This document shows positions 1 to 57,013 of a stretch of 64,000 bases of DNA, piece after piece; position 1 is the first letter of the stretch; the number at the start of each line of letters is the position of its first letter. Where the stretch lies: NCBI GenBank assembly GCA_022794035.1, contig JAAWDX010000001.1:209936-273935 (forward strand), read 5' to 3'. The DNA comes from Lachnospiraceae bacterium (GTDB lineage: Bacteria; Bacillota; Clostridia; Lachnospirales; Bianqueaceae). The notes under the pieces were generated by a model. That model had not been told where the DNA came from. It saw only the letters and a list, made by a program, of their open reading frames with translations, and searched no databases. The translations under genes and the position numbers were made by a program.

Positions 1-959
1 CGGAGGCTTATACAGGAGACTTTGAGGTTCCCTTTTCAACCAACGCGCAGATCACATGCCTGAAGCAAGAAAGGCTGTATTGGGAAAATTCAGAGGATCG
101 CTATGGCGACCTTATGGTACAGGAAGGGCAGGAGGTCAAAAAGGGGGATGTGCTTGCTACCTTTGAAGTGACGTCAGTGAGTGACGCTGATATTTTAGAA
201 AGGGAGCTGGCGATTCAAAATGCAGAGACTTCGCTGGCAAAAGTTCACACACGGTATCAGGAGGCCATTGAAAGCAAGCAGGAAAGCTTAAAGACATTGA
301 CATCCTATGAGTATCAGATTGCAGAGCTGGAGTTAGAAAAGCTTAAAAGCGAATATGCGCAGCAGGTAGCAGAAACAGAACGGCAAGCTGAGACGCTGCG
401 CAAAAGCCTGCAGGAGCTTCGGGAGAGAAAAGAGGGCGGCCGCATGATTGCGCCATTTGACGGCAGGGTGCAGTCGGTGAGCCGAAGCTTCCAAAAAGGG
501 AATAAGGTCGTCGCCTACGAGACGCTGATTGTGCTGGAGGACACAAGCAGCAGAGCGATTTGCTTTGTCAATAACAGTGCCTTCGGTACAGTGCCCTATT
601 TGAGTAAGGTGGAGCTGTACGACAAATGGGCGAAAAAAAGCTATACCGGAACCGTTGTCAGCTGCGCGCATGTGACAGGTCAGAAAATGGATGAGGTGGT
701 TGTGCAGCCTGATGATGCAGGCATTATGCTGGCTGACAGCGTGGGATTTTTAGAAGTGACGGGTAATTTAATTAGAAAATCCGATGTAATTTTGGTCGAC
801 AGTAAGGCCGTCAAAAAAGAGGGAACCAGCTACTACGTGTTTGTGCTAGGAGAAAACAATAGTATGCAAAAGGTTTATATCTCTGTCGGCGGTGAAAATG
901 CAGGCGTCACATGGGTAACAGAAGGTCTGGAGCCAGGCCAGACGGTAGTCTTAGAATAA
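1..959 (+). CDS. HlyD/MacA-family efflux transporter periplasmic adaptor (membrane-fusion protein), 5'-truncated by the window edge
   Basis: The reading frame of the 114..959 ORF stays open back to nt 3 with no stop, so the gene starts outside the window. The translation shows a lipoyl-like hairpin (VQEGQEVKKGDVLATF), a long coiled coil (ELELEKLKSEYAQQVAETERQAETLRKSLQELRER) and a beta-rich C-terminus ending GLEPGQTVVLE. These are typical of HlyD-family adaptors. An ABC permease gene follows 13 nt downstream. Confidence 0.8.
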   Translation, partial: EAYTGDFEVPFSTNAQITCLKQERLYWENSEDRYGDLMVQEGQEVKKGDVLATFEVTSVSDADILERELAIQNAETSLAKVHTRYQEAIESKQESLKTLTSYEYQIAELELEKLKSEYAQQVAETERQAETLRKSLQELRERKEGGRMIAPFDGRVQSVSRSFQKGNKVVAYETLIVLEDTSSRAICFVNNSAFGTVPYLSKVELYDKWAKKSYTGTVVSCAHVTGQKMDEVVVQPDDAGIMLADSVGFLEVTGNLIRKSDVILVDSKAVKKEGTSYYVFVLGENNSMQKVYISVGGENAGVTWVTEGLEPGQTVVLE

Positions 960-4473: not shown

Positions 4474-5394
4474 ATGATTGAGTGCGAGAATCTGGTCAAA
4501 ATTTATAAGACAGAAGACATAGAGGTACTGGCGCTGCAGGGGCTGGAGCTTACTGTGCAGAAGGGCGAGCTGATGGCGATCATCGGCAACAGCGGCAGCG
4601 GTAAGTCGACCTTTTTGAATATGATTGGCGGGCTGGACCGCCCTTCGGCCGGACGTCTGTATGTGGATGGCCTGGATCTGTTTAAGCTTTCAGAAGCAGA
4701 GCTGGTGGCTTATAAGCGTGACATAGTTGGCTTTGTCTGGCAAAACAACGCCCGTAACCTAATGCCCTATTTAACCGCGCTGGAGAATGTGCAGATGCCG
4801 ATGATGTTTACGACCAGGCGGCGGCAAAGGGAGCGCGCAATGGAGCTTTTGGAGCTGGTAGGCCTCGGGCATCGTAAAAACAGTAAGCTAAGCTCCCTTT
4901 CCGGCGGAGAACAGCAGCGTGTGGCCATTGCCATTGCGCTGGCAAACGATCCCAAGCTGCTGCTTGCGGATGAGCCTACTGGCAGCGTAGACGTGAGAAC
5001 GAGCGATTATCTACTGGATACATTCCGTGCGCTGAATGAAGAGCTCGGACTTACGATTGTGATTGTAACGCATGACCGTCATTTGGCGAAGAAGGTCAAC
5101 CGTGTGGTTTCCATCCGCGATGGAAAGACCAGCAGTGAGATGATCATGCGGCAGAGCTATCGGGAGCGCATGAAGGAGCTGGATGGGCTGGACGATGGCA
5201 TGGCAGAGGCGATGGCGGAAGCAGCACATGAAGAATTCACAGTGCTGGACAGGGCCGGCAGGCTGCAGATTCCTTCGCAGATGCTGGATGAGATCGGCGC
5301 AACCAGCCACAAGGTTAAATTAGAGGTTGTCGATGGCCGGATTGTCATTGCTCCGGAAGAACAGGAGAATACAGAGGATAAGGAACAAGCATAA
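4474..5394 (+). CDS. ABC transporter ATP-binding protein (NBD 2) with a C-terminal extension of about 90 aa
   Basis: Walker A GNSGSGKST, signature LSGGEQQRVAIAIA, Walker B LLLADEPT and H-loop VTHD. I prefer the ATG at 4474 (MIECENLVKIY, just after the upstream stop) over the ORF-track start at 4438, which overlaps the previous gene. The tail contains RLQIPSQMLDEIGATSHKVKLEVVDGRIVIAPEE. Confidence 0.9.
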   Translation: MIECENLVKIYKTEDIEVLALQGLELTVQKGELMAIIGNSGSGKSTFLNMIGGLDRPSAGRLYVDGLDLFKLSEAELVAYKRDIVGFVWQNNARNLMPYLTALENVQMPMMFTTRRRQRERAMELLELVGLGHRKNSKLSSLSGGEQQRVAIAIALANDPKLLLADEPTGSVDVRTSDYLLDTFRALNEELGLTIVIVTHDRHLAKKVNRVVSIRDGKTSSEMIMRQSYRERMKELDGLDDGMAEAMAEAAHEEFTVLDRAGRLQIPSQMLDEIGATSHKVKLEVVDGRIVIAPEEQENTEDKEQA

Positions 5395-26800: not shown

Positions 26801-27693
26801 TGTATCTGGGAGACGTGACTTCGGAGCAGCCGTATCAGCTGGTATTTACGGCGAAGCTGGTGGGCAGTCCTCAGGATTATAATATTGGTAATATCGCATG
26901 GGCGAATGGTAAGGATCCTTCCTTGCCGGGCAGTGATCAGCCGACGCCTGGGGTCGATGAGAATACCGAGCCGGGTGACCCGTACTTCCCGCCGGAGGAC
27001 GACTGGGTGGATGAAGGCGGCCCGACGACGGAGAAGGTGTATCCGGATGAGAAGGACAGACCGCTGACACCAGGACCAAAGCTGACGAAGACGTCGCGCA
27101 ATCTGACGCATCCGGCCAGCAAGCTGGAAATTGGCGATGTGCTTGAATATGAGCTAGAGATTGCCAATACGCAGCTGGGTTCGGTATGGCGGAATGTGAC
27201 AGTTACCGATACGCTGCCTGAGCAGCTGGCACTGCAGCCTGATGGGTGGATGCTGATTCATCCGGATGGAACGGTAGAGCCGCTGCAGATTGAGAATATC
27301 TACGATGAGGAGACGCATAGCTTTACGGTTGTGCTTCCGGAGGCAGTTCTCACGGGAGGAACCTATTGGCTGCGGTATCAGATGGCGGTTTCTGGTGAAG
27401 GCTTGGGAGATGCGCCGGTGGTGGATATTACAAATAAAGCGACGGCGACTGGTACAGATATTGATGGTCATATCGTGGCGGTAGAAGCGGCTGACATCGT
27501 TCAGTATGAGAAACCAGCTGCGCCAGAAGAGCCTGCAGAGCCAAAACCACAGGAGCCGGAGAACAGCGGTTCCGGTGGAATTCAGACAGGCGATTCTGCG
27601 AATGCAGCGCCGTATCTGGTGGTGCTGCTGACAGCAGTTATCTTGCTTGCTGTGATTGTGATTCTGAGAGTGCAGAAGAGTAAGAAGAAATAA
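5881..27693 (+). CDS. Giant (7,270 aa) secreted, probably sortase-anchored cell-surface repeat protein / adhesin
   Basis: A single uninterrupted 21.8-kb ORF with a strong RBS. N-terminal signal peptide (KQIKKVMAMLLCAVMMLGDMSSVMTAGG...ALSAQ). Listeria-Bacteroides-repeat-like segments (e.g. FNRGAGSGTAPASQ...FVGWSY). Many ~90-aa modules with the signature (Y/H)TVTW.A..GY.V.SV.(V/I)(D/N)G. Four DUF11-type repeats. C-terminus ...PQEPENSGSGGIQTGDSANAAPYLVVLLTAVILLAVIVILRVQKSKKK, i.e. a sorting-like motif, a hydrophobic helix and a basic tail. Confidence 0.95.
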   Translation: MNGRHCKQIKKVMAMLLCAVMMLGDMSSVMTAGGIMPAALSAQLSSEEGSSDASAETAQDKLQFTAVPSYQPEEGEELPEGAQITYTYSWQYAERKYDRWGNEQELTEADWKTCVIGGEEKPDGTFNPFCTAAEQGVTAEDGSSVGRMLLVSVPDGIDRRTQLSKMTVRCVVGATVQDGEGNELEELSKTIVTNRTNIRMDAALLACDLTVTYTENTVLTVSAPDLSYEAVPAVANAPVDSDITYTYTWQYYDTSGWRGQWRDITYRNSPLKNAVVSDGTLMLTLPATIAERKKLDGLRVQCKVTATADGYTIGNSPTGFYEFGTVSVDSSLLQYGLLVRSDNTAAQIKDASDILSFKVTPALSGADASFNNYQYDWQYLDAEGNWTSISRSDENCPLRYATSTSGADSVLSMPLPENVDSRRALNQTKVRCVVSVNGVSPVNPPQVIGEEAVVEIAPELLTEFSLIMTASPSNSSRIDYPGQSMSIGYETAVDGLHADEAVIKYIWEYKAKGASVFQPLSAASGIFQGGVFSESGNSFSFNNTGSSNKANLKAMDGATIRCTAELYANGDAAANGDPYEISRSKEVTVSINEALISEYGQSSWLQNAWLEVDAINELNTFATGNEILTVRATARAEADEFNLPDGAIAGDYALGVDPNYGGGYQHVWEYRENGSEEWKPISTLESAVLDYITITDGTDDTENTSVLEIELPETYAGRMRLTGMSFRCISSAIATANHLSEVTRWGFISASTPDDAFTVLVNPKLLRSQASSTRRIIAFLTAEEAERYLADPENFDVSTAQQYDYTRSYLVEYFADGVREERAIANFPESVVAIYEYQVEKDIETVETKLGAVEIPVPWRFIVQNGKQYNLSSTKAEYRYDAVFAQIIPQWNAEELQKYIDEHPDPNALDYDEDDAVKWVIAAGLNGRFPHIKVCWNTELKGLANNADYVKYNGMYGASGSAEEKAKVAELAGAPNNPYWKQTYSDWFFKSNNEFNGDLPTAAQKAEGNNEAAAEAEQLAWLNAHYGTVKVMMDDVRSEESDPTPIVMELPVTWEKYTVDEYDTASQSMTARWMGGAAVANMQGARAPAAKWVWRAKIDAVEQGQYVLADAFRYTNIEANIYWSRVIDSIVGALISETDAATTSFVALSNAAQLSSKIPTALRVELKDANGGLNITDTITIDGSNWKLIEGSVYDASQQYHWRALNANAASIVDEVGTGSAAGFVAIEPTLSGYTFTENADTEMARVWYQWGTIITGLKKDGGADFDAIAAAKTPIIKVPTIGGTNQSAVTWGNLLTQLNKPFGVTLLDKSNTTGFKQSTITPSWTQPAYDATAPAGRIQPAAQFERPASGVVFGEDLVREFNGREPYGEISWNINPPSKTSGSTNFIKYNIVSNQPHVTGAAGQKTVYADKPWECYYTASSSPTVSQKTTNFGAQDVWQDAGESVKYMVKTSERGGGAFVEYSVTFRNDSTGTRYVGLSYGSDVMIHNNDRAPLTVTSNGIKMEEASGDMCQFNINTTTATAGISVSADGYWIGVYSGRQHWQSTVAGDGNKKINANGEAYVTGIDSGLTFSWVPQKHPLAPGESVTFTCQFGIGKMSEPPRIVPHYDSGSGRSTNVTLNGSNLDISAWVAGEAAYPLRLYYVLDEGLPTQQSEASLGNKVNAQGVVSAATFRGYSAAQQTAYFRTGTENHFVNITGTVEKPRDWVAGEYHSITVYGLSDAGLMTDSVRFPLYVDENEDGEEIFVEATDATVNFNRGAGSGTAPASQTAHMQEPIVLPKGDKLTPPSGQKFVGWSYTEDNGKTTIYPAENYFYVEKNPTTLTARYIPTSQTMYLVETYMQNANGDYEQEDTEVRIDTATSGNIVFTPDPMPGYTVNTSKSKLSVTRNDGAIVQVYYDINHYDVVYNLNGAPGGDENGIFKTVQVAYGGNVSGVPNAAALNAGQNNQFFRFRGWFENADPEDPGNIIDTDTVVDETTLDTIEPGGKLIAYAHWQPLGNAQATFDYNYQNHAQGASRSDKIALDPIVSESGRYGYSSKPRRLPATPSAWKDTEGKVYTFLEWRLVENGEMTETVVTKDTILPNYENVTIKALWTESYSVSRSSQGDGTIWDINDPAGGERSYAPGDTVDIRWRANPGSYVQHVYIDNVLSDDLIKNGGWHLEDIRENHSVYVVFGFGEGDSGIEEETTYNITATPVGGVAFDVPERGGTYKAQYGEDYTVKWRISPGYTLSSVTINGLPMDISESDNSYTFNNIHIDQEIKVTAVRGSGGISGGGTVNRGPYTISTKIGRGTEITPNQTVAYGDSSTITWKVPYGFVVDSVLINRVPLATPPQNNTYVFRNVTQNSSIIVMCKPDPSLPPDTIYVTTTIDDHGSITPTTPIGQLAKGDNHTVTWSADSGYYVSAVYIDNVLQKTDSGANKIFYSYTFTNLQTNHDVVVEVKPVESSGGDTPAPALHAITTSMENGGTIDKPGSVPNGSDVTVTWRMAPNHRVVGVYLDGELVDDYNAETNGNSYTLRNITAAHTLKVVCERVISDIDLTGKHIVTTTINLGASDGQKIVNDGESCTVSWTPPKGYHVSSLKVDGVEQSYVDGNSWTIDHVTKDITIAVTVEKDSEQNYKIAANIVNGGTVSGGGTVNVGKGAILRWTVADGFRVSDITIDGVSVSGIDLENDRSYSFPASQGAAGQTYQFNVICTPKLYYHVRPTGTGCENLSASADPYVGDAYTVSWKAAEGYRFKSVTINGTEVTPVLKDGVYSYTFDSSNTAANGTYQVEVLCDKIRSYTITTGRNSGGVVSASKTLYETDAEKSYTVTWSASSGYRVKAVTVDGMPYTGESYVFNYEDGKDVTLRVEFEPQKYYTVKAIGKNTGITAGNGTYTIDTDTTVKWTAPEGFVLSSVTIDGTEVTVAADQTEYTFDHTTGLTAGHTYEIIVTYVAEGAGGEEPEEPDQFYTVQTAGVFTRTISESAARKLGEDYLVLWTVLDGYQLQSVKVNGTAVTNYTAQLGGYSLLISGADKTADEVVTVEVICEKIQPGQPGGGGSVITPYSVYAYTNDAALGTVTPSAATLKEDGAEAAVKWDAKQYCHIVSVTVSDYPDRSNPVLLTEEQAAAGVYTFAYDDHTDKIVDVVFERDPQYAVSSAAAGNLGEGCTVTGSGVLKQAGDECTVSWTVSAGYRIESIVIADADGQNAQTLDAAAMARGSLTLRYADLSADRKVTVTYEKNTTGSAWRTVHAQVNDAAMGTVTPSVKSLTAAGSTCSIAWTANPGFRVRSVIVSNYPDGSDARALSREELAEGQYTFAYNDGKDQHVYVVFEQDPAYEISIIGVDGGAGSTVTGGKTLTASGQSHMVTWAAGAGYQVKSVVIANTDGTNTQTLSAEEAARNSYTFEYDTMTASRKVTVTFEKAIPSVYSVVTSVNDESMGWISPSADLYAEGAEYTVSWGAHEGYYVKSVTVNGADYTGNTYTFRYSGHQDAAVQVVYEKYPEFVISTEKVGGGANSSVRSGATLTRSGETYAVTWSADSAFKVDSVVITDAAQQVVKTLSETEIAAGKYTFAYDQMSSDQKLTVVFATDTSSGGGAGTLPYSVTTSVNDEAMGSIDPSATLRRPDAEYTVTWSAKSGYQVKSVTIDGQTYTRAEGNLPSSYTFKYNDHKDVAVSAMFEQEPQYVITTEQKGNGGAGSFVSDGAVLSQPGQAHTVTWFADEGFHVKSVVVSKPDGSDRITLDAAAIQLGSYTFTYEGVGASDRKLVVTFEKDEDTTPGGGGSIPATPYTVTTSVNDETMGTVSPSMTLKEAGATYEVTWSAHEGYYVKSVSIDGRGYAPGSYTFAYDEYKDVTVKVTFAPNQEYTASAVMVGGGAGSRVLPASGTLSESGDTHTVKWTADEGYKATSAVVTNAKGKVVWTCDETELAAGQYTFSYDEMTSDQTITVTFTKENADAQIYAINTSVNDAAMGWVSPSVTLRAAGESTITWGANTGYRVKKVTISDPDGGNAREASAEELTSSRFVFRYADKKDLALHVELEPIPSYEITVEKIGGGAKSTAEPASAVLSQTGDRQTVTWNADTGYHVESVVISRPDGSDRTVLDAAAIAAGSHTFTYASMGGSDRKITITFKKDETPGGLTAVPYSIGTSKIGSGIVTAPKTLYHEGETHVVAWTPEAGWHVAEVTINGVPYRGADNQIPTSYEFKYDDHRDAALIVTFAENDKRTITTVMSGVYGPGSRVSEGGTLKLDGQTHTVTWTAEEGYEVVSVTDSKPDGSDAKTVDAASGSYTYQYEALDSDRLLTVTFAKQEGTPVYSVITGVNDTAMGTVTSGATLKASGETAEIVWSAKPGYHVREVVYKLDGAVQADAPASPYTFRYDDGHDAELYVVFERNTGYTVNVNPVGSGTAANPKTMYGVGEQYEVWWKPNEGAELVSVTVSGYAPLGESKVLTADDWTYDAASGRYGYTFEYDKMAADATIDIVFKDKDYYYITTSAQNVQSITAAPEQCELTQSSTIQWVPAEGAVLQAIKIDGVSQAITDPNQTELIFTPDSPAANQIYLIEVIYELQTEEEPAQPEYRINVSKEGSGTVTGAGILRQEDADSENHAVTWTAAEGWHVSKVVVDRTRLSDEEAASGSYTVKYSELTGDVNIKVVFERDQIIAPPAEENRFTVSTEYEGNGTISNGATLSEGEEPYTVTWAAGDGWYVKSAQLIKTEDGTVIQSLDESSYLFSYEVGQNVTVKVVFEKEAQYSITAVIDAGGSISPAAATLRKGDAPAEIIWSISDSEKFSLKSVTINGTALSASEYTKADGSYGYTFVYDDLFAAGMPENIVLKVELDEAEQPAQPQQYLISTGITPSIAGTISAAAMVAENGSYIVTWNAKSDYRVTKIEVTENGTTRELTAADSGLYAFTNVTGNCSIMVSCEERSQIDLGGDERFYEIVTGINGGSMDDGKTVRSVREGDSYTVSWTPDPGSYVASVVVDGAQVPVCTEYTFNDISSDHTVQVTCLSMAVSEIYYVDVTPGSAIASGNCEVQVGTDHTVTWKPAAGEHIVSVTVNDQPVDIGNANTGGSYTITGAAKDEVFHVVITSEQNADTPEEEVYFDVAVTAKNCTVSGQTHVKAGESTTIAWEPEFGYEVKSIIIDDSARPVTLESFTFDAMSSDHSVIIVCERIGSEDPDPEAAYTISTRITDGGTITAPVTVSTPEEKQSQTIAWSAPEGFRVAQVKIDGVQRPELTEAGSVTFTDIAADHSVDVECRQIEKHTITVSNDNGTISAAPALVEDGGSSVVTWSGMAGFVLKSVQMNGISLSADAYTDHGDGSYSLTLQNVISDHVIVVEYEPDASLDPGNTKNYIYTHIDHGTITPTVTLTSAADRAYQKIEWTVAEGYRITRVLVDDQAVSAAGMVELTNIAGDHTVSVECEKIPAYTVATDAKNVTMITPTKTDIPEGSAHSVSWKHEDNLVLKVFKVDNVEVALAEGITSYEFTDVRENHTVYVEYGPQDEPEKPDKVEISVMVTNGTKTGGGTLNYGTKSHTVTWTPNAGYEVKSVIIDSVAMAEEQIKKTGDSLTFTDITGSHSIVVVCEIPKTGEDPEPDEKVYLEANIINGTFEPENEFGVYELEKGTDFEISWTPQEGYHVVSVKLDQVERPDLLADGRLKLIGISGDHVLTVECRDEEEEPNEGPFTITTSIDHGSISESFTTDEEHSSYTVSWTVDSRYEIVSVMVDGNPYANAADGYIDFNPIRANHTVDVRSQLKDQPVNTHVINVIVDNGGTHAVIVDGNPAEYVEDGGSAKATWQAADGYDVTRIVIDGVSYNSLPGCDAQKGEYTFNNVTKDHEIIVYTGKHVEKEPVYYGITILPHGDPSGLELSESLPSVLEGTEIAVTWKAKPGWQIDKVTRNNNIMSAADMAAGMTEDGFTFTVNANNDFVVYVSKQGPADDSFVTVTTEINSGWISNGGSVKKGSSFEVAWRPGDGYTVDQVTITDADGNKTVLTEGLDNAQNWKHTLDSITANTLIQVSCVKQPDDEPPLIYSYQIDTQATNGVITGGGTVTAGTDREITWAAADGCSIKSVMLYEISREDGSRTEMDISDAENNRYTIQNIDADYLVVLICENEMQSDDDFFYDIYTQITNGTINGPFLNLRKADQAVVSWTPAEDCYVKAVLVDGKAVSIPADHQLEVLVEGDDHVVEVICEKKKPVEIPDDVTPYTIETYIYDGLGEITPKTAALPGSDVTVQWKGDANNHYKVDRVYVDGKSIEIPSNNMFTFTNLDQNHKIEVYLAENLVNVEVSYEGNGEVVKSGTVYWGENFGIVRGLPNEGYRLESVILNGKLLQQGEIIPELLPDPDMPLPGEPTEEEQPAARMLRRAGRRLAAPTALLSARAEDYTKFTENEFQNTFYFRDVTQQQSVKYVFVDNNGTSDYAPYQVNVELVDGRGEREVAKNVAAGSDTSIGWTLDEGYYVDHISVVRNNLESDINDLEDANLQGDSRVGLTNVQANTTVKVYLKRGTPPDPQDANDFSLSIDVVGPGSNDPDIRVYGAGRGMAAGAHEASWAVGDHKVTMVKVDGAVREDLIGKTSTVIQMNREDVKRDHHVIVYLDGVVLPGLEKQAGGGGATVGDVIPYTISVWNDTDQAIWENVTLSDVIPAGLKVDTASMKLYRVNADGSKTQITSVLPVYDAATRTISASLGDMTKADKFELDFNAEVEPEAAGQDIGNAVKAVGTNSGTTDRDPQHIVEAVTEKVYPGGTTSVLPKAPAPHLTKTVSNNSAHPEHTRVGDTLTYTIDAWNSEPGAVWKNVKIKDDVPEGLEVLESSIELSEIIGSSKLPAPEDLSVQYDAVNRSLTVNLGDVQYNQHYQISFKVLVLPEAVGNDIGNVALAAGTAPDKTPVSEETAPVYPSDLDKPDQDGVLPAAPAPLVEKTAHNLDRTDEQSKVGDTIEYTLTVKNTKAGSTWKDAVLRDRIPEGLELDTANIVLRTPDGDITLDAAVYDETSRIISVYLGDVTSEQPYQLVFTAKLVGSPQDYNIGNIAWANGKDPSLPGSDQPTPGVDENTEPGDPYFPPEDDWVDEGGPTTEKVYPDEKDRPLTPGPKLTKTSRNLTHPASKLEIGDVLEYELEIANTQLGSVWRNVTVTDTLPEQLALQPDGWMLIHPDGTVEPLQIENIYDEETHSFTVVLPEAVLTGGTYWLRYQMAVSGEGLGDAPVVDITNKATATGTDIDGHIVAVEAADIVQYEKPAAPEEPAEPKPQEPENSGSGGIQTGDSANAAPYLVVLLTAVILLAVIVILRVQKSKKK
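12160..25600 (+). repeat. In-frame tandem array of ~85-95-aa InlB-B-repeat-like (Ig-fold) modules inside the giant gene
   Basis: The recurring pattern (Y..T....GG.(I/V)......V..G....(V/I).W.(A/P)..G(Y/F).(V/L).S(V/I).(V/I)(D/N)G.......YTF..(V/I)..(D/N)H.(I/V).V.) is visible throughout about 4,480 aa. That gives on the order of 50 modules if the period holds. This is a by-eye estimate, not a computed count. Confidence 0.8.
25650..27480 (+). repeat. Four DUF11 / 'conserved repeat domain'-type modules at the C-terminus of the giant protein
   Basis: Four paralogous ~130-150-aa blocks begin GDVIPYTISVWN, GDTLTYTIDAWN, GDTIEYTLTVKN and GDVLEYELEIAN. Each is followed by W(E/K/R)NV.(L/I/V).D.(I/V/L)P.(G/Q)L... 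and a later IGN(A/V/I) motif. Confidence 0.7.
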
Positions 27694-27700
27694 AAAGAAA

Positions 27701-27749
27701 GAAGGGCTTCCTTAGGCTGCCAAGCGGCAGCTAAGGAAGCCCTTCTTTT
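27701..27749 (+). terminator. Intrinsic terminator of the giant gene
   Basis: Long stem GAAGGGCTTCCTTAG(G)CTGCC / GGCAGCTAAGGAAGCCCTTC with loop AAGC, followed by TTTT (27746-27749), starting 8 nt after the stop codon. Confidence 0.85.
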
Positions 27750-28063
27750 GCATGTTGGCGGGGGCGTGAGAATGATTATCACCAACATGCAAATGGTGGA
27801 TTTGCACGCCGGAGGCAGCGCAGGAATGATTGACATGGACATGCAAACAGTGGATTTGCATGCCGAAGGGGGCGCAGGAATGATTGACATGGGCATGCAA
27901 ACAGTGGATTTGCATGTCGGAGGGGGCGCAGGAATGATTGCCGCCAACATGCAAACAGTGAATTTGCATGTCGAAGGACGTTCGGGAATGATTGACATGG
28001 ACATGCAAACAGTGAATTTGCATGTCGATAGGAACCCGGGAATGATTATCACCAACATGCAAA
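27746..28063 (+). repeat. Tandem array with a 54-bp period: 5 full and 2 partial units, each with the palindrome ATGCAAA-N7-TTTGCAT
   Basis: Unit starts (ATGCAAA) fall at 27787, 27841, 27895, 27949, 28003 and 28057, exactly 54 bp apart. An example unit is ATGCAAACAGTGGATTTGCATGCCGAAGGGGGCGCAGGAATGATTGACATGGGC. The array fills the whole gap between the two convergent terminators. Confidence 0.95.
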
Positions 28064-28099
28064 AACAAGCCCTTCCGCAAATAATGCGGAAGGGCTTGT
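28059..28099 (-). terminator. Intrinsic terminator of gyrA
   Basis: On the minus strand, the stem ACAAGCCCTTCCGCA / TGCGGAAGGGCTTGT (28065-28099) is followed by TTTTT. It lies 20 nt after the gyrA stop. Confidence 0.85.
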
Positions 28100-28118
28100 T
28101 ATAAACTTGCTTTCAATT

Positions 28119-30596
28119 TTATTCCTCGGCGGAATCCTCTTCAATTTTCTCTTCGCGAATCTTCGCGATGCTGACGATCTTGGTGTCCTTATCAAGTCCC
28201 ATCAGCTTCACGCCGGAGGTCACGCGGCCGATCTCGCTGATATCCTGTACGCGCAGGCGGATGATAACGCCTCCGCTCGTAATCAGCATCAGATCCTGAT
28301 CCGGTGAAACCAGCTTAAAGCTAACCACATCGCCGGTCTTGGCGGTAATACGGTAATACAGATTGCCCTTGCCGCCGCGCTTTTGCACGGAAAACTCGGT
28401 CAGAGCCGTGCGCTTGCCCATACCGTTTTCGGTAACGGCCAGCGCGGAATCTCCCTGCGAGGTCAGCTGCACGCCGATCACTTCATCGCCAGCGCCGAGC
28501 GTAATACCCTTTACGCCCATGGAGCTGCGGCCGGTCGTACGCACATCAGTTTCGCGGAAGCGAATGATCTGGCCGCGCTTGGTGGCCATGAGCACTTCAT
28601 CCTTGCCGCTGGAGCGCTTAACCTCGATCAGCTCATCGCCCTCCTGAAGGGAAATAGCAATCAGTCCATTCGTACGAATATTGCTGTATTCAGCAAGATC
28701 TGTCTTTTTGATAATACCATTTTTGGTCGCCATCAGCAGATAGCCCTTATCGCGCTTTTCCTTCATCTGAATGGCAGCGCTGACCTGTTCGCCGCCGCTC
28801 AGCGACAGCAGGTTCACAATGGCCGTGCCGCGGGCCGTGCGGCCTGCCTCGGGGATCTCATAAGCCTTCATGCGGTATACGCGGCCCCAGTTGGTAAAGA
28901 ACAGCACATAATCATGCGAGGAAGCGATGAAGAGATGCTTTACAAAATCCTCTTCGCGGGTTTCGATACCCTTAATGCCCTTGCCGCCGCGGTTCTGGCT
29001 GTGATACATGTCTAAGGAGGTGCGTTTGATGTAGCCAAGATTGGTCATCGTGATGACGCAGCTCTCGTTTTTGATCAAATCCTCTAAGTTGATCTCGCCT
29101 TCCTCATAAGTAATATAGGTGCGGCGCGGATCTGCATATTTGGTTTTCAGTACCAGCAGCTCTTCCTTGATCACGCTGAACAGTATATTTTCATTTCCTA
29201 AAATGGCTAAATACTCCTGAATCTTTTCTGTCAGCTCATCATACTCATTTTGCAGACGGTCGCGCTCCAGTCCGGTCAGCGCACGCAGACGCATGTCCAC
29301 GATTGCCTGTGCCTGTGCATCGCTGAACTCAAAGCGGGCGATCAGGTTTGCCTTTGCCTCGGCCACGTTAGAGGAAGCACGGATAATGGAGATAATTTCA
29401 TCAATGTAGTCCAGCGCCTTTAAAAGACCCTCTAAGATGTGCGCACGCGCCTGTGCCTTATCCAGATCATACTGCGTACGGCGCGTTACAACCTCTTTCT
29501 GATGATCCAGATAGTAGGTGAGCATCTGCTTTAAATTCAGCACCTTAGGCTCATTATTCACAAGGGCCAGCATGTTGATGCTAAACGTATCCTGCAGGGG
29601 TGTATTTTTATAGAGCTGATTGATGATCAGCCGCGCATTGGCATCGCGCTTTAAATCAATCACGATCCGCAGACCGTTACGGTTGGTCTCATCGCGCAGA
29701 TCAGAAATCCCTTCAATTTTTTTGTCCTTAACCAGCTCAGCAATACGCTCGACCAAACGCGCTTTATTCACCTGATAAGGAATCTCGGAGACCACAATGC
29801 ACTGGCGGTGTCCCGGAAGCTCTTCGACCTCCATATTCGCGCGAACAACTGCGCGCCCGCGCCCGGTGCGGTAGGCCTGCTCAATATCGCGCACGCCGTA
29901 AATGGTTGCGCCGGTGGGGAAGTCAGGTCCCTTTACAATCTGCATCAGCTCGTCAATGGTGGTATCGCGGTCCTCGAGCATGTGGTTGTCGATGATTTTC
30001 ACAACCGCATCGATCACCTCGCCCAGATTGTGCGGGGGGATGCTGGTGGCCATACCAACGGCGATACCGCCGGTTCCGTTCACCAGCAGGTTGGGAAAGC
30101 GTGCGGGCAGCACGGTGGGCTCCTTTAAAGAGCCGTCAAAGTTGGCGGTAAAGTCAACGGTATTTTTATTGATATCCGAGAGCATCTCCATCGAAAGCTT
30201 GCTCAGGCGCGCCTCGGTATAACGCATAGCGGCAGCGCCGTCGCCGTCCATCGAGCCGAAGTTGCCGTGCCCGTCGACCAGCATATAGCGCGTGGAAAAG
30301 TCCTGTGCCAAGCGCACCATGGCTTCATAAATAGAGCTGTCGCCGTGTGGGTGGTATTTACCCATCGTATCGCCCACGATACGGGCTGATTTACGGTAGG
30401 ATTTGTCCGGGGATAAACCCAGCTCATTCATCGCGTGCAGAATGCGGCGCTGAACGGGCTTCATGCCGTCACGCACATCCGGCAGCGCACGCGTGGTAAT
30501 TACGCTCATGGCATAGTCAATAAAGCTGTCCTTCATCATTTTTTCCAGATTGACAATCTCAATCCGGTCATGCTGCGGCGTCTGATTTTCGTCCAT
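28119..30596 (-). CDS. gyrA: DNA gyrase subunit A
   Basis: 825 aa. N-terminus ...[32 protein letters not shown], the active-site region [10 protein letters not shown] and C-terminal beta-pinwheel repeats. Located directly downstream of gyrB, with its SD inside the gyrB 3' end. Confidence 0.98.
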
Positions 30597-54565: not shown

Positions 54566-54835
54566 ATAATAAAAAATCCCGAATAAACACACTGTTTATT
54601 CGGGGGTACATACAAGTACGGTTCCACCTCGATGTTTCACTTTAGGACGGCATCCGGCATCTAAGCATGCGCGGTGCGATCCCTTTGACCGATAACGAGG
54701 TCAGTCGCCTGCCTTATATCAGCAGGGGCTCGGGAGTGGTTTTCATTATGAGCTGACCATAAAAAGCTTGCAGCCAAAGGCCTTTTTTCTCTGTCTGGCG
54801 TTCATAACTACTCGTTCCGTCTTTGCACTTTGTGT
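54566..54835 (-). promoter_or_regulatory. T-box riboswitch leader (Thr) of thrS
   Basis: Minus strand: a T-box-like sequence GAGGTGGAACCGTAC (complement of 54616-54630) sits immediately before a terminator CCCGAATAAACA-GTGTG-TTTATTCGGG + ATTTTTT (54571-54605). A candidate ACC specifier lies in GAAAACCAC (complement of 54738-54740). thrS is a classic T-box-regulated gene in Firmicutes. Confidence 0.75.
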
Positions 54836-54873: not shown

Positions 54874-55623
54874 TTAATTCGGTAAACGGCTTAAATGCAG
54901 GGCCTTGATTTTAAATAGCGCGTCGAGCTCGTCAAAAACGCCGTTTCGATCCTGTGTGATGACAAGTCCGTTCCCTTCTGAAATTTGGTGCATGGTGTAG
55001 AAACGGTTTTTTTCTGCCCATTTTTGCGCATAGCTTTTAATATGAAGCATCCCCAGATGTTCCCAATATATTTCATGGCCGTCCGGTCCGATAAGTGTGA
55101 AATCGGGGAGAACCATGCGGCCGTTTAAAATCAGGGTTTTTTCATATTGATAGGGAATGTTATGATAATAGAAAATATTAGCGAGTAAGGCTTCTGACTT
55201 GGAACGTACATATTCGCCGCGCAGCGTGAGGTGCTTTAAGTTCTCAGGGTATACGGCAGAAGAGGGGATAACAGGTGATGGGCTTTCTGTAGCTGAAAGC
55301 TGCTGAGGGTCAAGATGAAGTGTTTTGAGGCATTTTTTCACAAGAGTTAATTTTTTTCTTGTAATGCGCAGATCTGCTTCTATATTTTGGAGTCTGCGGA
55401 TTTCTTGTTCATAAGTAGAAATTTCGTCTGCCGGGACCTTTTTCGTGTGCCGCTTTCCGTGAGTATAAAAGCAGTAATATATTTCGGGTTGTTTACGGCT
55501 TTTACGAGTTTCCAGCCTGCCGGGGCTGTGAATGCGTTTTTGGAGAAGAGTTTGCTGCATGTTGGTTAGTTCCTGATAGGCCTGTGATAGCAGATTTTCA
55601 ATATCCCATAATCCTAAATTCAT
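54874..55623 (-). CDS. Hypothetical protein with a PD-(D/E)XK-nuclease-like C-terminal half
   Basis: I chose the start at MNLGLWDIENLL (ATG 55621-55623, GGAGG 7 nt upstream). The ORF-track extension to 55815 runs into the repeat array. The C-terminal pattern VRSKSEALLANIF...YQYE...LPDFTLIGPDGHEIYWEHLG fits an E / PD / E.. restriction-endonuclease-like core. I do not recognise a specific family. Confidence 0.55.
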   Translation of the reverse strand: MNLGLWDIENLLSQAYQELTNMQQTLLQKRIHSPGRLETRKSRKQPEIYYCFYTHGKRHTKKVPADEISTYEQEIRRLQNIEADLRITRKKLTLVKKCLKTLHLDPQQLSATESPSPVIPSSAVYPENLKHLTLRGEYVRSKSEALLANIFYYHNIPYQYEKTLILNGRMVLPDFTLIGPDGHEIYWEHLGMLHIKSYAQKWAEKNRFYTMHQISEGNGLVITQDRNGVFDELDALFKIKALHLSRLPN

Positions 55624-55720
55624 TGATGTACCTCCGAAAATGATTTTTATATTATTAGTATCGGAGTTTTTTAGTGAAAAGCACAGCCTACTTTGGAAAT
55701 TTATTATTTTTAGAGAAACT

Positions 55721-55985
55721 TGCATGTCGGCAGTGGATACGGCAGAGAGGAAATCGGCGTGCATGCGGTTAAAATGCATGTCGGTGATGACTTGATTTTG
55801 GCAGAGAATCAACATGCAAAATTAAGAAAAGCATGCTGGTTTAAGTGACGGTAGAACGGAAATCAGCATGCAAATTGATTAAATGCATGCTGGTAGACAT
55901 GCAGTCTGATGGGCCTACCGGCATGCAAATGAATAGGGTGCATGCTGGTGAGCTAAAATCGAGTATAAAAACCGACATGCAATAA
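55721..55985 (+). repeat. Second, diverged copy of the ~54-bp-period palindrome array (about 5 units)
   Basis: ATGC(A/G) unit starts fall at 55763, 55814, 55868, 55923 and 55977, giving spacings of 51, 54, 55 and 54 bp. The cores are ATGCAAATTGATTAAATGCATGCTGG, ATGCAAATGAATAGGGTGCATGCTGG, ATGCAAAATTAAGAAAAGCATGCTGG and ATGCGGTTAAAATGCATGTCGG. The 10-mer TGCATGTCGG is shared with the 27.8-kb array. Confidence 0.85.
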
Positions 55986-56013
55986 AAGAAGGAATCAGAA
56001 AATAAACAAGCTA

Positions 56014-56043
56014 TTGACAAAATACAGTTTTTGGTCATAGTAT
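56014..56043 (+). promoter_or_regulatory. Candidate promoter of the LysR-family regulator gene
   Basis: TTGACA (56014-56019), 18-nt spacer, TAGTAT (56038-56043). Confidence 0.5.
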
Positions 56044-56083
56044 GATGCCTAGGGCTTTTAATATAAGAAATGAGGCAGGGCTT

Positions 56084-57013
56084 ATGACATTACAGCAATT
56101 GCATTATGTGATTACGATATCGGAAACAGGATCCTTCAATAAGGCAGCGGAGCTTTTATATGTAGCACAGCCTTCGTTGACGAGTTCAATAAAGGAGCTC
56201 GAAAAAGAGCTAGGAATTGCCATTTTTCATCGCAGCGGCCGCGGTATCTCGCTGACTAGTGACGGCCTTGAATTTATGATTTATGCAAGACAGGTATATC
56301 ATCAATATGAAGTGCTGAGAGATAAATACGGAAGAGCGGGAGAGCGAAAAAAGAAGTTTGGCGTTTCCACGCAGCACTATTCCTTTGCCATTAAAAGCTT
56401 TGTGGAGATGGTGAAGCAATTTGACACAGAGCAATATGAATTTGCGATTAGAGAGACCAAAACAAAGGAAGTGATTGACGATGTGATCACCTCTAAAAGC
56501 GAAGTCGGGATTTTATATTTGAATGATTTTAACCGTAAAGCGATTGAAAAACTGTTACGGACCAATCAGCTCGAGTTTCACAAGCTGATTGACTGCGAGG
56601 CCTATGTTTATCTTTGGAAAGGACATCCGCTTGCAAAAAATAAGCAGATTTGCTTTGAAGAGCTTGTTGACTATCCATGCCTTTCTTTTGAGCAGGGCGC
56701 GGAAGGATCCTTTTATTTTGCCGAGGAAATCCTTTGTACCAATGAGTATACAAGAATGATTAAAGCAACCGACAGAGCCACCATGTTAAATTTGATGATC
56801 GGGTTAAATGGCTATACGCTGTGCTCCGGAATTATCTGTGAAGAGCTTAACGGCTCAGATTATACGGCAGTTCCCTTTAAAATAGAGGAAGATATGGTGG
56901 GAGGCCGGATGGAGATTGGATATATTGTAAAAAGCAATATGATTTTAAGCAGTATGGGGCAGTTGTACACCCAGGAGCTCAAACGGTATTTGCAGCAGCA
57001 TCACAGCAAATAG
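56084..57013 (+). CDS. LysR-family transcriptional regulator (likely sulfur-amino-acid regulator, CmbR/MetR/CysL-like by context)
   Basis: The N-terminal HTH MTLQQLHYVITISETGSFNKAAELLYVAQPSLTSSIKELEKELG is a canonical LTTR signature. I prefer ATG 56084 over the ORF-track start at 56042. It is adjacent to a sulfhydrylase gene. Confidence 0.88.
   Translation: MTLQQLHYVITISETGSFNKAAELLYVAQPSLTSSIKELEKELGIAIFHRSGRGISLTSDGLEFMIYARQVYHQYEVLRDKYGRAGERKKKFGVSTQHYSFAIKSFVEMVKQFDTEQYEFAIRETKTKEVIDDVITSKSEVGILYLNDFNRKAIEKLLRTNQLEFHKLIDCEAYVYLWKGHPLAKNKQICFEELVDYPCLSFEQGAEGSFYFAEEILCTNEYTRMIKATDRATMLNLMIGLNGYTLCSGIICEELNGSDYTAVPFKIEEDMVGGRMEIGYIVKSNMILSSMGQLYTQELKRYLQQHHSK

Follow-up and report, generated by a model that had tools for sequence, protein, structure and literature searches.

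A long-period palindrome array beside a gene for a small protein with a predicted PD-(D/E)XK nuclease domain

The closest known systems to the locus described here include, among others, the REP/BIME and REPIN-RAYT systems of Proteobacteria (Bertels and Rainey 2011, PMC3116915; PMC3337134). The locus, array 2, lies directly upstream of a gene for a 249-aa protein in a window of 64 kb, by which we mean the whole stretch of DNA analyzed; a related array, array 1, lies 28 kb away. Common to these arrays and to the REP/BIME and REPIN-RAYT systems are extragenic palindromes in alternating orientation, arrays with fixed linker lengths, a lineage-specific repeat sequence, and orphan arrays at convergent gene ends, and, as in REPIN-RAYT, every repeat family has as its partner a single-copy protein gene that is inherited vertically and lies next to its cognate repeats. 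Unlike RAYT, an IS200/IS605-type HUH tyrosine transposase, the partner here is a PD-(D/E)XK-domain protein; the window protein had no Pfam match that would place it with RAYT/HUH Y1, and its fold is PD-(D/E)XK. The repeats of REPIN-RAYT are two-sided, whereas half-sites were found here only upstream of the gene, with a thrS T-box leader downstream. REPINs number tens to hundreds of dispersed copies per genome; in about 76 kb examined here, there were two arrays and no singletons above chance, a very low copy number for the available DNA. The 53.5-bp period, conserved across lineages, is a further difference from REPIN-RAYT.

Type III toxin-antitoxin systems (ToxIN, CptIN, and TenpIN) likewise have short tandem repeats directly upstream of a small nuclease gene and a unit length typical of the family, and the nuclease domain of the 249-aa protein is related to candidate phage-defence proteins. 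A Pfam search gave no match to ToxN, CptN, or TenpN, and PADLOC returned only PDC-S68, PDC-S69, PD-DEXK, and, for one homologue, a weak Cas4d match. In place of the type III order of promoter, repeats, terminator, and toxin, no terminator was found, no promoter was seen on the far side of the repeats, and promoter-like sites lie between the array and the gene. Unlike the near-identical direct repeats of type III systems, the units of array 2 are diverged outside the palindrome arms (17-39% identity), the strand orientation varies with respect to the gene, and a second, unlinked array is present.

Phased operator and iteron arrays include the plasmid iterons with Rep, the parC-type centromeres with ParR, and the Bacillus subtilis Ter sites beside rtp. 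Shared with these are multiple sites at a fixed helical phase directly upstream of a putative binding-protein gene, extra copies of the site elsewhere on the replicon, and a site and protein that change together. The differences are a period of 53.5 bp rather than 11-22 bp, interrupted palindromes, a nuclease domain that is apparently active, and the lack of a recognized DNA-binding fold in the N-terminal domain; in addition, unlike plasmid origin and partition arrays, the context here is chromosomal and housekeeping. With CRISPR loci, the array has in common regular, partly palindromic repeats, dissimilar segments of constant length, and a nuclease gene of a Cas4-like fold class, but the 54-bp period is too short, the repeat loops vary, and the apparent spacers are diverged copies of each other (72% identity across 47 nt when offset by 109 bp) that are nearly identical in array 1. 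No CRISPR repeat family matched at a meaningful score, and blastn searches of 55700-56000 against phages and plasmids gave only matches with E >= 3. Because the spacers are related to one another and no phage or plasmid matches the array region, a CRISPR-like reading was rejected. The array-plus-protein module fits no known family tested, and the comparisons below indicate a conserved gene-plus-array module that is undescribed: literature searches yielded REPIN/RAYT and type III toxin-antitoxin work only, with no account of the module, although this does not prove novelty.

Structure of the two arrays

The repeat array at 55720-55985 proved to be real and, in its structure, essentially as the initial annotation had described it, with respect to both coordinates and motif. 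It consists of a lone half-site, four interrupted palindromes, and another lone half-site, with a spacing of 54-55 bp between centers, a dyad consensus of ACCRRCATGCA-N11-TGCATGYYGGT, and a purine-rich + strand. Its features, for which no strand is assigned, are the following:

55720..55985, no strand: array 2, comprising the lone proximal half-site, 4 dyads, and the lone distal half-site
55720..55730, no strand: lone gene-proximal half-site TTGCATGTCGG, overlapping the candidate minus-strand -35 CCGACA
55753..55785, no strand: dyad 1, ATCGGCGTGCA-N11-TGCATGTCGGT, with a degenerate left arm (3 transitions relative to the right arm)
55807..55840, no strand: dyad 2, AATCAACATGCA-N11-AGCATGCTGGT
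55861..55894, no strand: dyad 3, AATCAGCATGCA-N11-TGCATGCTGGT, with 11-nt arms
55916..55949, no strand: dyad 4, TACCGGCATGCA-N11-TGCATGCTGGT, with 11-nt arms
55970..55982, no strand: lone distal half-site AACCGACATGCAA, the perfect inverted partner of 55720-55730

The half-sites at the two ends (55720-55730 and 55972-55982, the latter read as CCGACATGCAA) are 100% complementary. The dyads noted earlier were all present but are longer than had been proposed, with 11-nt arms in ATCAGCATGCA-N11-TGCATGCTGGT and ACCGGCATGCA-N11-TGCATGCTGGT, and the 10-mer TGCATGTCGG was found where it had been placed, at 55721 and 55775, and also at 27911 in array 1. The ATG of the 249-aa ORF is 98 bp from the array and the TTGACA of a candidate LysR promoter 29 bp from it, distances that likewise agreed with the initial annotation.

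The pattern ATGCR-N8-12-GCATGYYGG had seven matches in the 64-kb window, all seven of them within arrays 1 and 2, compared with an expectation of 0.06 from 100 dinucleotide shuffles; the shorter motif GCATGYYGG occurred 14 times (4.3 expected), with 12 of the 14 occurrences inside the two arrays. Autocorrelation over 55624-56083 gave top lags of 54 (31 windows), 109 (29 windows), and 55 (20 windows), for which the 95th percentile of the shuffle maximum was 9. The shuffled-sequence control that had been suggested with the first description thus placed both the ATGC...GCATG motif and the lag-54 periodicity far above chance. Tandem Repeats Finder reported array 1, with a period of 54; array 2 is too diverged and was not reported. 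Identity between the units of array 2 was 78-81% in the arms, 39% in the loop, and 17-32% in the spacers. The earlier view that only the arms and the period are conserved was therefore correct for the arms and the period, but the spacers are not wholly unrelated: the 72% identity over 47 nt between units 109 bp apart, a likeness at a two-unit offset, shows that array 2 is an old tandem duplication of which only the arms and the register have been kept.

Array 1 is situated between the terminator hairpins of an ORF for a putative 7270-aa surface protein and of gyrA:

27747..28063, no strand: array 1, five dyads CCRACATGCAAA-N7-TTTGCATGYCGR with an exact 54-bp period and lone inverted half-sites at both bounds

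Its units are young and nearly identical, and its half-site is common to array 2. The arms of the two arrays were ~70% identical and the remainder 23-34% identical, the core spacing of N11 (CATGCA to TGCATG) was equal, and both arrays were purine-rich on the + strand, with GC skews of +0.27 and +0.28. These values bear out the proposals that array 2 represents a second, diverged member of the repeat family of array 1 and that it has the same orientation. Neither a third array, searched for up to ~12 kb past the window ends, nor single repeat copies above chance were found in the about 76 kb covered; nor did the 249-aa gene have a second copy in the window or a paralogue near array 1.

At the end of the 7270-aa ORF (5881-27693, + strand), a hydrophobic segment precedes basic residues (...VVLLTAVILLAVIVILRVQKSKKK), and its product has the look of a giant cell-surface protein; array 1 directly follows its terminator hairpin. 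A period of 54 bp corresponds to 18 codons, so that several reading frames stay open through array 1 and give spurious ORFs of 118-158 aa at 27748-28104 (+), 27582-28058 (-), and 27712-28080 (-).

Gene neighborhoods and arrays in relatives

Array 2 is flanked by the 249-aa ORF (54874-55623, - strand) on one side and a LysR-family gene (56084-57013) on the other. Beyond these neighbors are a metY-like Cys/Met PLP enzyme gene, after the LysR gene, and thrS, past the 249-aa ORF. Promoter-like sites were identified as follows:

56014..56043, + strand: lysR promoter-like site, TTGACA-16/18-CATAGT/TAGTAT, 29 bp past the end of array 2
55651..55680, - strand: promoter-like site of the 249-aa gene, TTTTCA-18-AATAAT, in a block, CGATACTAnTAnTATAAA, that is conserved in L027 and L029
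55730 to 55703, - strand: second minus-strand promoter-like site, CCGACA-16-AATAAT, the -35 of which overlaps the lone proximal half-site

The minus-strand sites sit between array 2 and the 249-aa gene, and the location of one of them within the conserved block places array 2 upstream of it; no terminator-like site was found in the same interval. On the downstream side of the 249-aa gene, a full-length T-box leader was detected upstream of thrS (54599-54832, - strand; 58.5 bits; E 2.4e-12; below the Rfam gathering score of 93). It begins only 42 bp past the stop codon of the 249-aa gene, implying that the thrS promoter lies in or just after this gene or that thrS is partly cotranscribed with it.

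Seven loci of the close clade were compared, with proteins 40-66% identical to the window protein, on Lachnospiraceae-type contigs from gut or rumen Firmicutes. Homologues were found only in metagenome or MAG data, with Butyrivibrio and Pseudobutyrivibrio among them as the named genera. The loci, their half-sites, and their top autocorrelation lags (in base pairs) were as follows:

L027, protein P0003: half-site GTACGCAA, some TGCATGCA; top lags 54, 107, 53
L029, protein P0004: half-site GTGACTAA; top lags 26, 53, 107
L028, protein P0009: half-site CTGTGCG; top lags 107, 54, 53
L030, protein P0011: half-site CATGTAG; top lags 107, 54, 53
L031, protein P0014: half-site GGGTGA, mostly direct repeats; top lags 105, 53, 52/54
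L155, protein P0015: half-site GTTTGCA; top lags 54, 108, 53
L153, protein P0002: half-site GGATGCC; contig cut 179 bp upstream, with a trace at 54

The intergenic region upstream of the gene was long in each locus. Six of the seven loci (L027, L028, L029, L030, L031, and L155) had a clear periodic array directly upstream of the gene, and across the uncut loci, the top lags were 53-54 bp or the doubles of 105-108 bp, despite unrelated half-sites. These loci lend strong support to the view that the dyad arms and the period are the conserved features. Together with CATGCAA in the window genome, eight different half-sites were present over eight loci, and even between the window and its syntenic orthologue L027, the half-site shifted from CATGCAA to TACGCAA. 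The conservation of the lags alongside unrelated half-sites points to a constraint on the spacing and to a joint change of site and protein. In a sliding scan of 122 kb (window plus loci), the lag-53/54 signal was confined to the gene-linked arrays, array 1, and a single two-hairpin spot in L031. The more distant relatives of ~260 aa (L032 and L034) had no 54-bp array, although short repeated motifs were present in L034; contigs L001-L009, from the same species, showed 100% identity across the entire intergenic region and so carried no comparative information.

In the wider motif search that had been recommended, a two-unit pattern gave 16 single matches in genome contigs and 92 in metagenome contigs, which is the estimated chance level; since the half-sites of relatives are different, this outcome leaves the finding intact. 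The loci with multiple matches, L037 and L112, contain unrelated low-complexity repeats and were rejected as further arrays, and L011 contains a different repeat, a 20-bp tandem repeat, GGATAGGCATGCAATCTAC, of about 5 copies at 290-400 (- strand) in an intergenic gap of a Lachnospiraceae MAG, where the pattern match is due to chance.

The neighborhoods of these loci bear on which gene the array accompanies. The initial annotation had presented array 2 as lying upstream of a LysR promoter. In L027, thrS, TspO, DAHP synthase, and a small multidrug export gene are all present as in the window, and the array is kept beside the orthologue of the 249-aa gene, but lysR and the metY-like PLP gene are missing. 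Upstream neighbors in other loci differ each time (folC/Mur ligase, DUF1177, a Cys/Met PLP enzyme, and peptidase M42), and a LysR neighbor was absent from L027 and from the other six homologue loci examined, so that the array and a LysR regulator gene did not co-occur in any of them. Retention of the array in L027 and the changing neighbors elsewhere tie the array to the 249-aa gene; to judge from this synteny, array 2 goes with the nuclease-domain gene rather than with the LysR gene, and the earlier framing was abandoned. The lysR promoter-like site is a neighbor and lies outside the conserved module. Through its proximity to the -35, at 29 bp, the array may incidentally affect lysR transcription in this genome.

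Several minor features of the relatives' loci were recorded. The L027 orthologue (L027:4001-4764) is split by a frameshift near 4573, just ahead of the WEH motif, and is either a pseudogene or the product of an assembly error. The L027 array mixes two half-site types, with TGCATGCA close to the gene and GTACGCAA further off. Genome GCA_052834405.1, which contains both L028 and L031, has two paralogues, P0009 and P0014, each with its own array and half-site (CTGTGCG and GGGTGA, respectively), and the purine-rich strands of the two arrays are opposite relative to the gene. The two-hairpin spot in L031 (L031:5515-5600) lies after a fumarase gene, 1.8 kb downstream of the P0014 gene, and consists of GTAAGAAACG-N4-CGTTTCTTAC and GAAAGAAACA-N4-TGTTTCTTTC, 54 bp apart; its sequence is unlike both arrays known in that genome, and it may be a minimal third array or merely a pair of tandem terminators.

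The 249-aa protein

The start of the 249-aa ORF was set by alignment of homologues:

54874..55623, - strand: 249-aa partner gene, with an N-terminal domain at residues 5-101 and a C-terminal PD-(D/E)XK domain at about residues 130-245

An upstream ATG gives a 313-aa version (54874-55815, - strand) that overlaps array 2 and is used by the JGI gene call in L149. The protein belongs to no Pfam or NCBIfam family, none of 31 family members had a Pfam match at a meaningful E-value, and a profile search of PDB sequences gave no match. In the AlphaFold model (pLDDT 88.9), an N-terminal helix is followed by a three-stranded sheet and a helix of 37 residues, and a linker modeled with low confidence leads to a C-terminal alpha/beta domain. 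Foldseek matches of the C-terminal domain were weak yet consistent (R2 RLE, VRR-NUC, NucS, Card1/Cdn1, and McrC; E 0.02-0.25), and PADLOC matched the C terminus of PDC-S68 at 1e-34 and HEAT_CxxC_PD-DEXK at 5e-4, in addition to PDC-S69 and, for one homologue, the weak Cas4d model. Residues R140, S141, K142, E144, E161, P173, D174, F175, W187, E188, and H189 were invariant in the homologue alignment, and these nuclease-motif residues indicate an active site that looks intact. On the basis of the model, the Foldseek and PADLOC matches, and the invariant acidic residues, with a core of alpha-beta-beta-beta-alpha-beta and the series E ... PD ... ExK-like, the C-terminal domain is assigned to the PD-(D/E)XK (restriction-endonuclease-like) nuclease superfamily.

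The superfamily of this nuclease domain is large, with 5184 clusters at E <= 1e-3, of which only 8 remained at E <= 1e-30. In viral contigs, the domain forms the C terminus of proteins of 660 to about 1140 aa, most of them >1000 aa, or occurs in cut ORFs; the small stand-alone form was not found there. Three of the large viral proteins were scanned against Pfam and were SF1 or RecQ-type helicases, and the position of the domain at the end of such helicase-nucleases suggests an enzyme that acts on DNA.

Evolution of the N-terminal domain is about twice as rapid as that of the nuclease domain, with 26-43% identity within the family compared with 52-63%; between the L027 orthologue and the window protein, the values were 64% and 89%, respectively. 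Its strand (sheet) region is strongly basic, with a pI of 10.45. Fold searches with the N-terminal domain alone (PDB and BFVD) gave no significant structural neighbor, and a DNA-binding role for it therefore stays putative. Low-probability similarity to dsRBD and SRP14 in the full-length fold search was not confirmed with the N-terminal domain alone and was discarded.

Possible roles of the arrays

The palindromes could act as sites on duplex DNA or as hairpins in RNA. With every array oriented on its purine-rich strand, the stem positions were counted, and the arm pairs across arrays comprised 300 Watson-Crick pairs, 13 G·T pairs, 13 A·C pairs, and 17 other mismatches. On a strand that folds, whether as RNA or as single-stranded DNA, G·U should be tolerated but A·C should not, and the equal counts show no wobble bias of the kind that would mark a folded strand; by this comparison, the arms are conserved as sequence within a genome and not merely as pairing. 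Duplex recognition is also consistent with the N11 spacing common to both arrays, the position of the promoter, the terminators around array 1, and the Rfam results: no family reached its gathering score in the window, the array 2 region had no match at E <= 1, and around the arrays, only terminator hairpins gave generic subthreshold matches, apart from a subthreshold CRISPR-DR25 match in the array 1 region but outside the array (28110-28127; E 0.91). Other features count against duplex recognition. The arrays are 58-71% purine on one strand, a skew strong enough to suggest a strand-specific role such as transcription, and this strand flips between clades, being antisense to the gene in the window, L027, L028, and L029 and sense in L030 and L031. 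Moreover, the loop between the arms varies from 5 to 13 nt across loci, a variation that hairpins accommodate more readily than a dimer of fixed geometry would. Favorable RNA folding also counts against it, although the folding was far better than that of shuffles on both strands (z -4.8 to -9.9) and so does not discriminate, and AA/TT helical-phase periodicity was mixed and confounded by repeat harmonics. No promoter-like site was found reading into array 2 on its purine-rich strand or, likewise, into array 1 on the + strand.

We tentatively interpret array 2 as a set of phased docking or operator sites on duplex DNA for the neighboring 249-aa protein, an interpretation to which we give nearly even chances. 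The comparisons show the arrays with their period, their linkage to this gene family, a half-site that changes with the protein, and the nuclease fold; from the linkage, this covariation, and the absence of a strand bias, we infer binding, its target being duplex DNA rather than RNA, dimerization, and the effect of binding. The module would have two parts, a ~250-aa protein with a basic N-terminal domain and a PD-(D/E)XK domain and, upstream of its promoter, palindromes spaced at 53.5 bp. Dimers of the protein would bind each palindrome through the fast-evolving N-terminal domain, which would read the half-site, ACCRRCATGCA in this genome. A register of 53.5 bp corresponds to ~5.1 helical turns, so that successive dimers would lie nearly on one face of the helix and could assemble into one higher-order complex. 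Such a complex might reach the lone half-site over the candidate -35 of the protein's own gene, resulting in autoregulation, and might hold the nuclease at fixed positions. The protein would have a second docking site, one without a partner gene, in array 1 at a distance of 28 kb. The complex on array 2 would stop 29 bp short of the lysR -35 in this genome, with a possible incidental effect on lysR. Certain observations sit less easily with docking: at least five sites exceed the need of simple autoregulation, an intact nuclease site beside its own predicted binding sites would need a safeguard, the repeats in L031 are mostly direct rather than inverted, and L032 and L034 lack the 54-bp array.

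Other readings account for parts of the same evidence. The tandem array directly upstream of a small nuclease-domain gene, with its unit length kept across the family, would also be expected if the repeats acted as RNA, each unit of ~54 nt with hairpins and purine-rich linkers being bound and perhaps processed by the nuclease and keeping it inactive, as in type III toxin-antitoxin systems or in a sponge. The purine skew, the variable loop length, the folding of both strands, the complete change of stem sequences between loci with pairing kept, and the nuclease domain common to the defence candidates PDC-S68 and PDC-S69 would all suit such an RNA, but we consider it unlikely, since G·U pairs were no commoner than A·C pairs and were accompanied by 17 nonwobble mismatches, the purine-rich strand is antisense in some loci and sense in others, no promoter-like site reads into the array on that strand, and no terminator separates array and gene. 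The location of array 1 between two terminators, the identity of only 17-39% outside the arms of array 2, the lack of an Rfam match, and the lack of a Pfam match to a ToxN-type RNase also argue against a repeat RNA. The genome-specific pairing of a repeat sequence with a protein variant has a different explanation if the palindromes are selfish or domesticated elements of the REP, BIME, or REPIN type, copied or expanded by the nuclease in a RAYT-like role, with array 1 as a daughter array at a harmless site between convergent genes. Several features speak for this origin: the orphan array 1 has near-identical young units and lies where two genes converge at their 3' ends, as REP/BIME elements typically do; both arrays have lone half-sites at their bounds, inverted in the manner of terminal inverted repeats; and the gene is single-copy in the window and keeps its position between related species. 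It is nevertheless distinctly improbable, because there are two arrays only and no single copies beyond chance in about 76 kb, the repeats flank the gene on a single side, an HUH/Y1 transposase domain is absent from the protein, and no target-site features were seen; in addition, the units of array 2 are old and diverged, yet their arms and period are kept, which indicates selection for a function in place and not turnover.

LysR-type regulators bind interrupted dyads, and array 2 ends 29 bp ahead of the -35 of the candidate lysR promoter, features that would agree with the earlier proposal of a regulatory element of the lysR/metY-like operon, for example multiple LysR operators. With the array kept beside the 249-aa orthologue in L027 without lysR and the metY-like gene, the other six loci lacking a LysR neighbor, and array 1 near no LysR-regulated promoter, this proposal is very hard to credit. 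A further, somewhat unlikely reading is that the locus represents a new class of protein-repeat partnership in Lachnospiraceae-type Firmicutes, in which a small PD-(D/E)XK nuclease with a fast-evolving recognition domain maintains, copies, or is checked by its own 53.5-bp arrays. If so, the class would be either a REPIN-like replicator with a non-HUH enzyme or a nuclease toxin neutralized by a DNA or RNA decoy array.

If the protein does bind the arrays as in the docking interpretation, the module would be a compact natural system in which a nuclease-domain protein coevolves with a long-period array of sites. It could then offer a readable protein-DNA recognition code for an N-terminal domain without a recognized fold, a test case for the selection of an exact spacing of about five helical turns, and possibly a Firmicute counterpart to REP/RAYT or type III toxin-antitoxin biology with a different enzyme. 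The arrays also have practical consequences for genome data. Two contigs end within an array (L028:1-330 and L153:1-110), indicating that the repeats break short-read metagenome assemblies, and the protein-array family is probably underrepresented in metagenome bins. Gene callers are misled as well, as seen in the 313-aa call that overlaps array 2 and the 118-aa ORF that runs through array 1.
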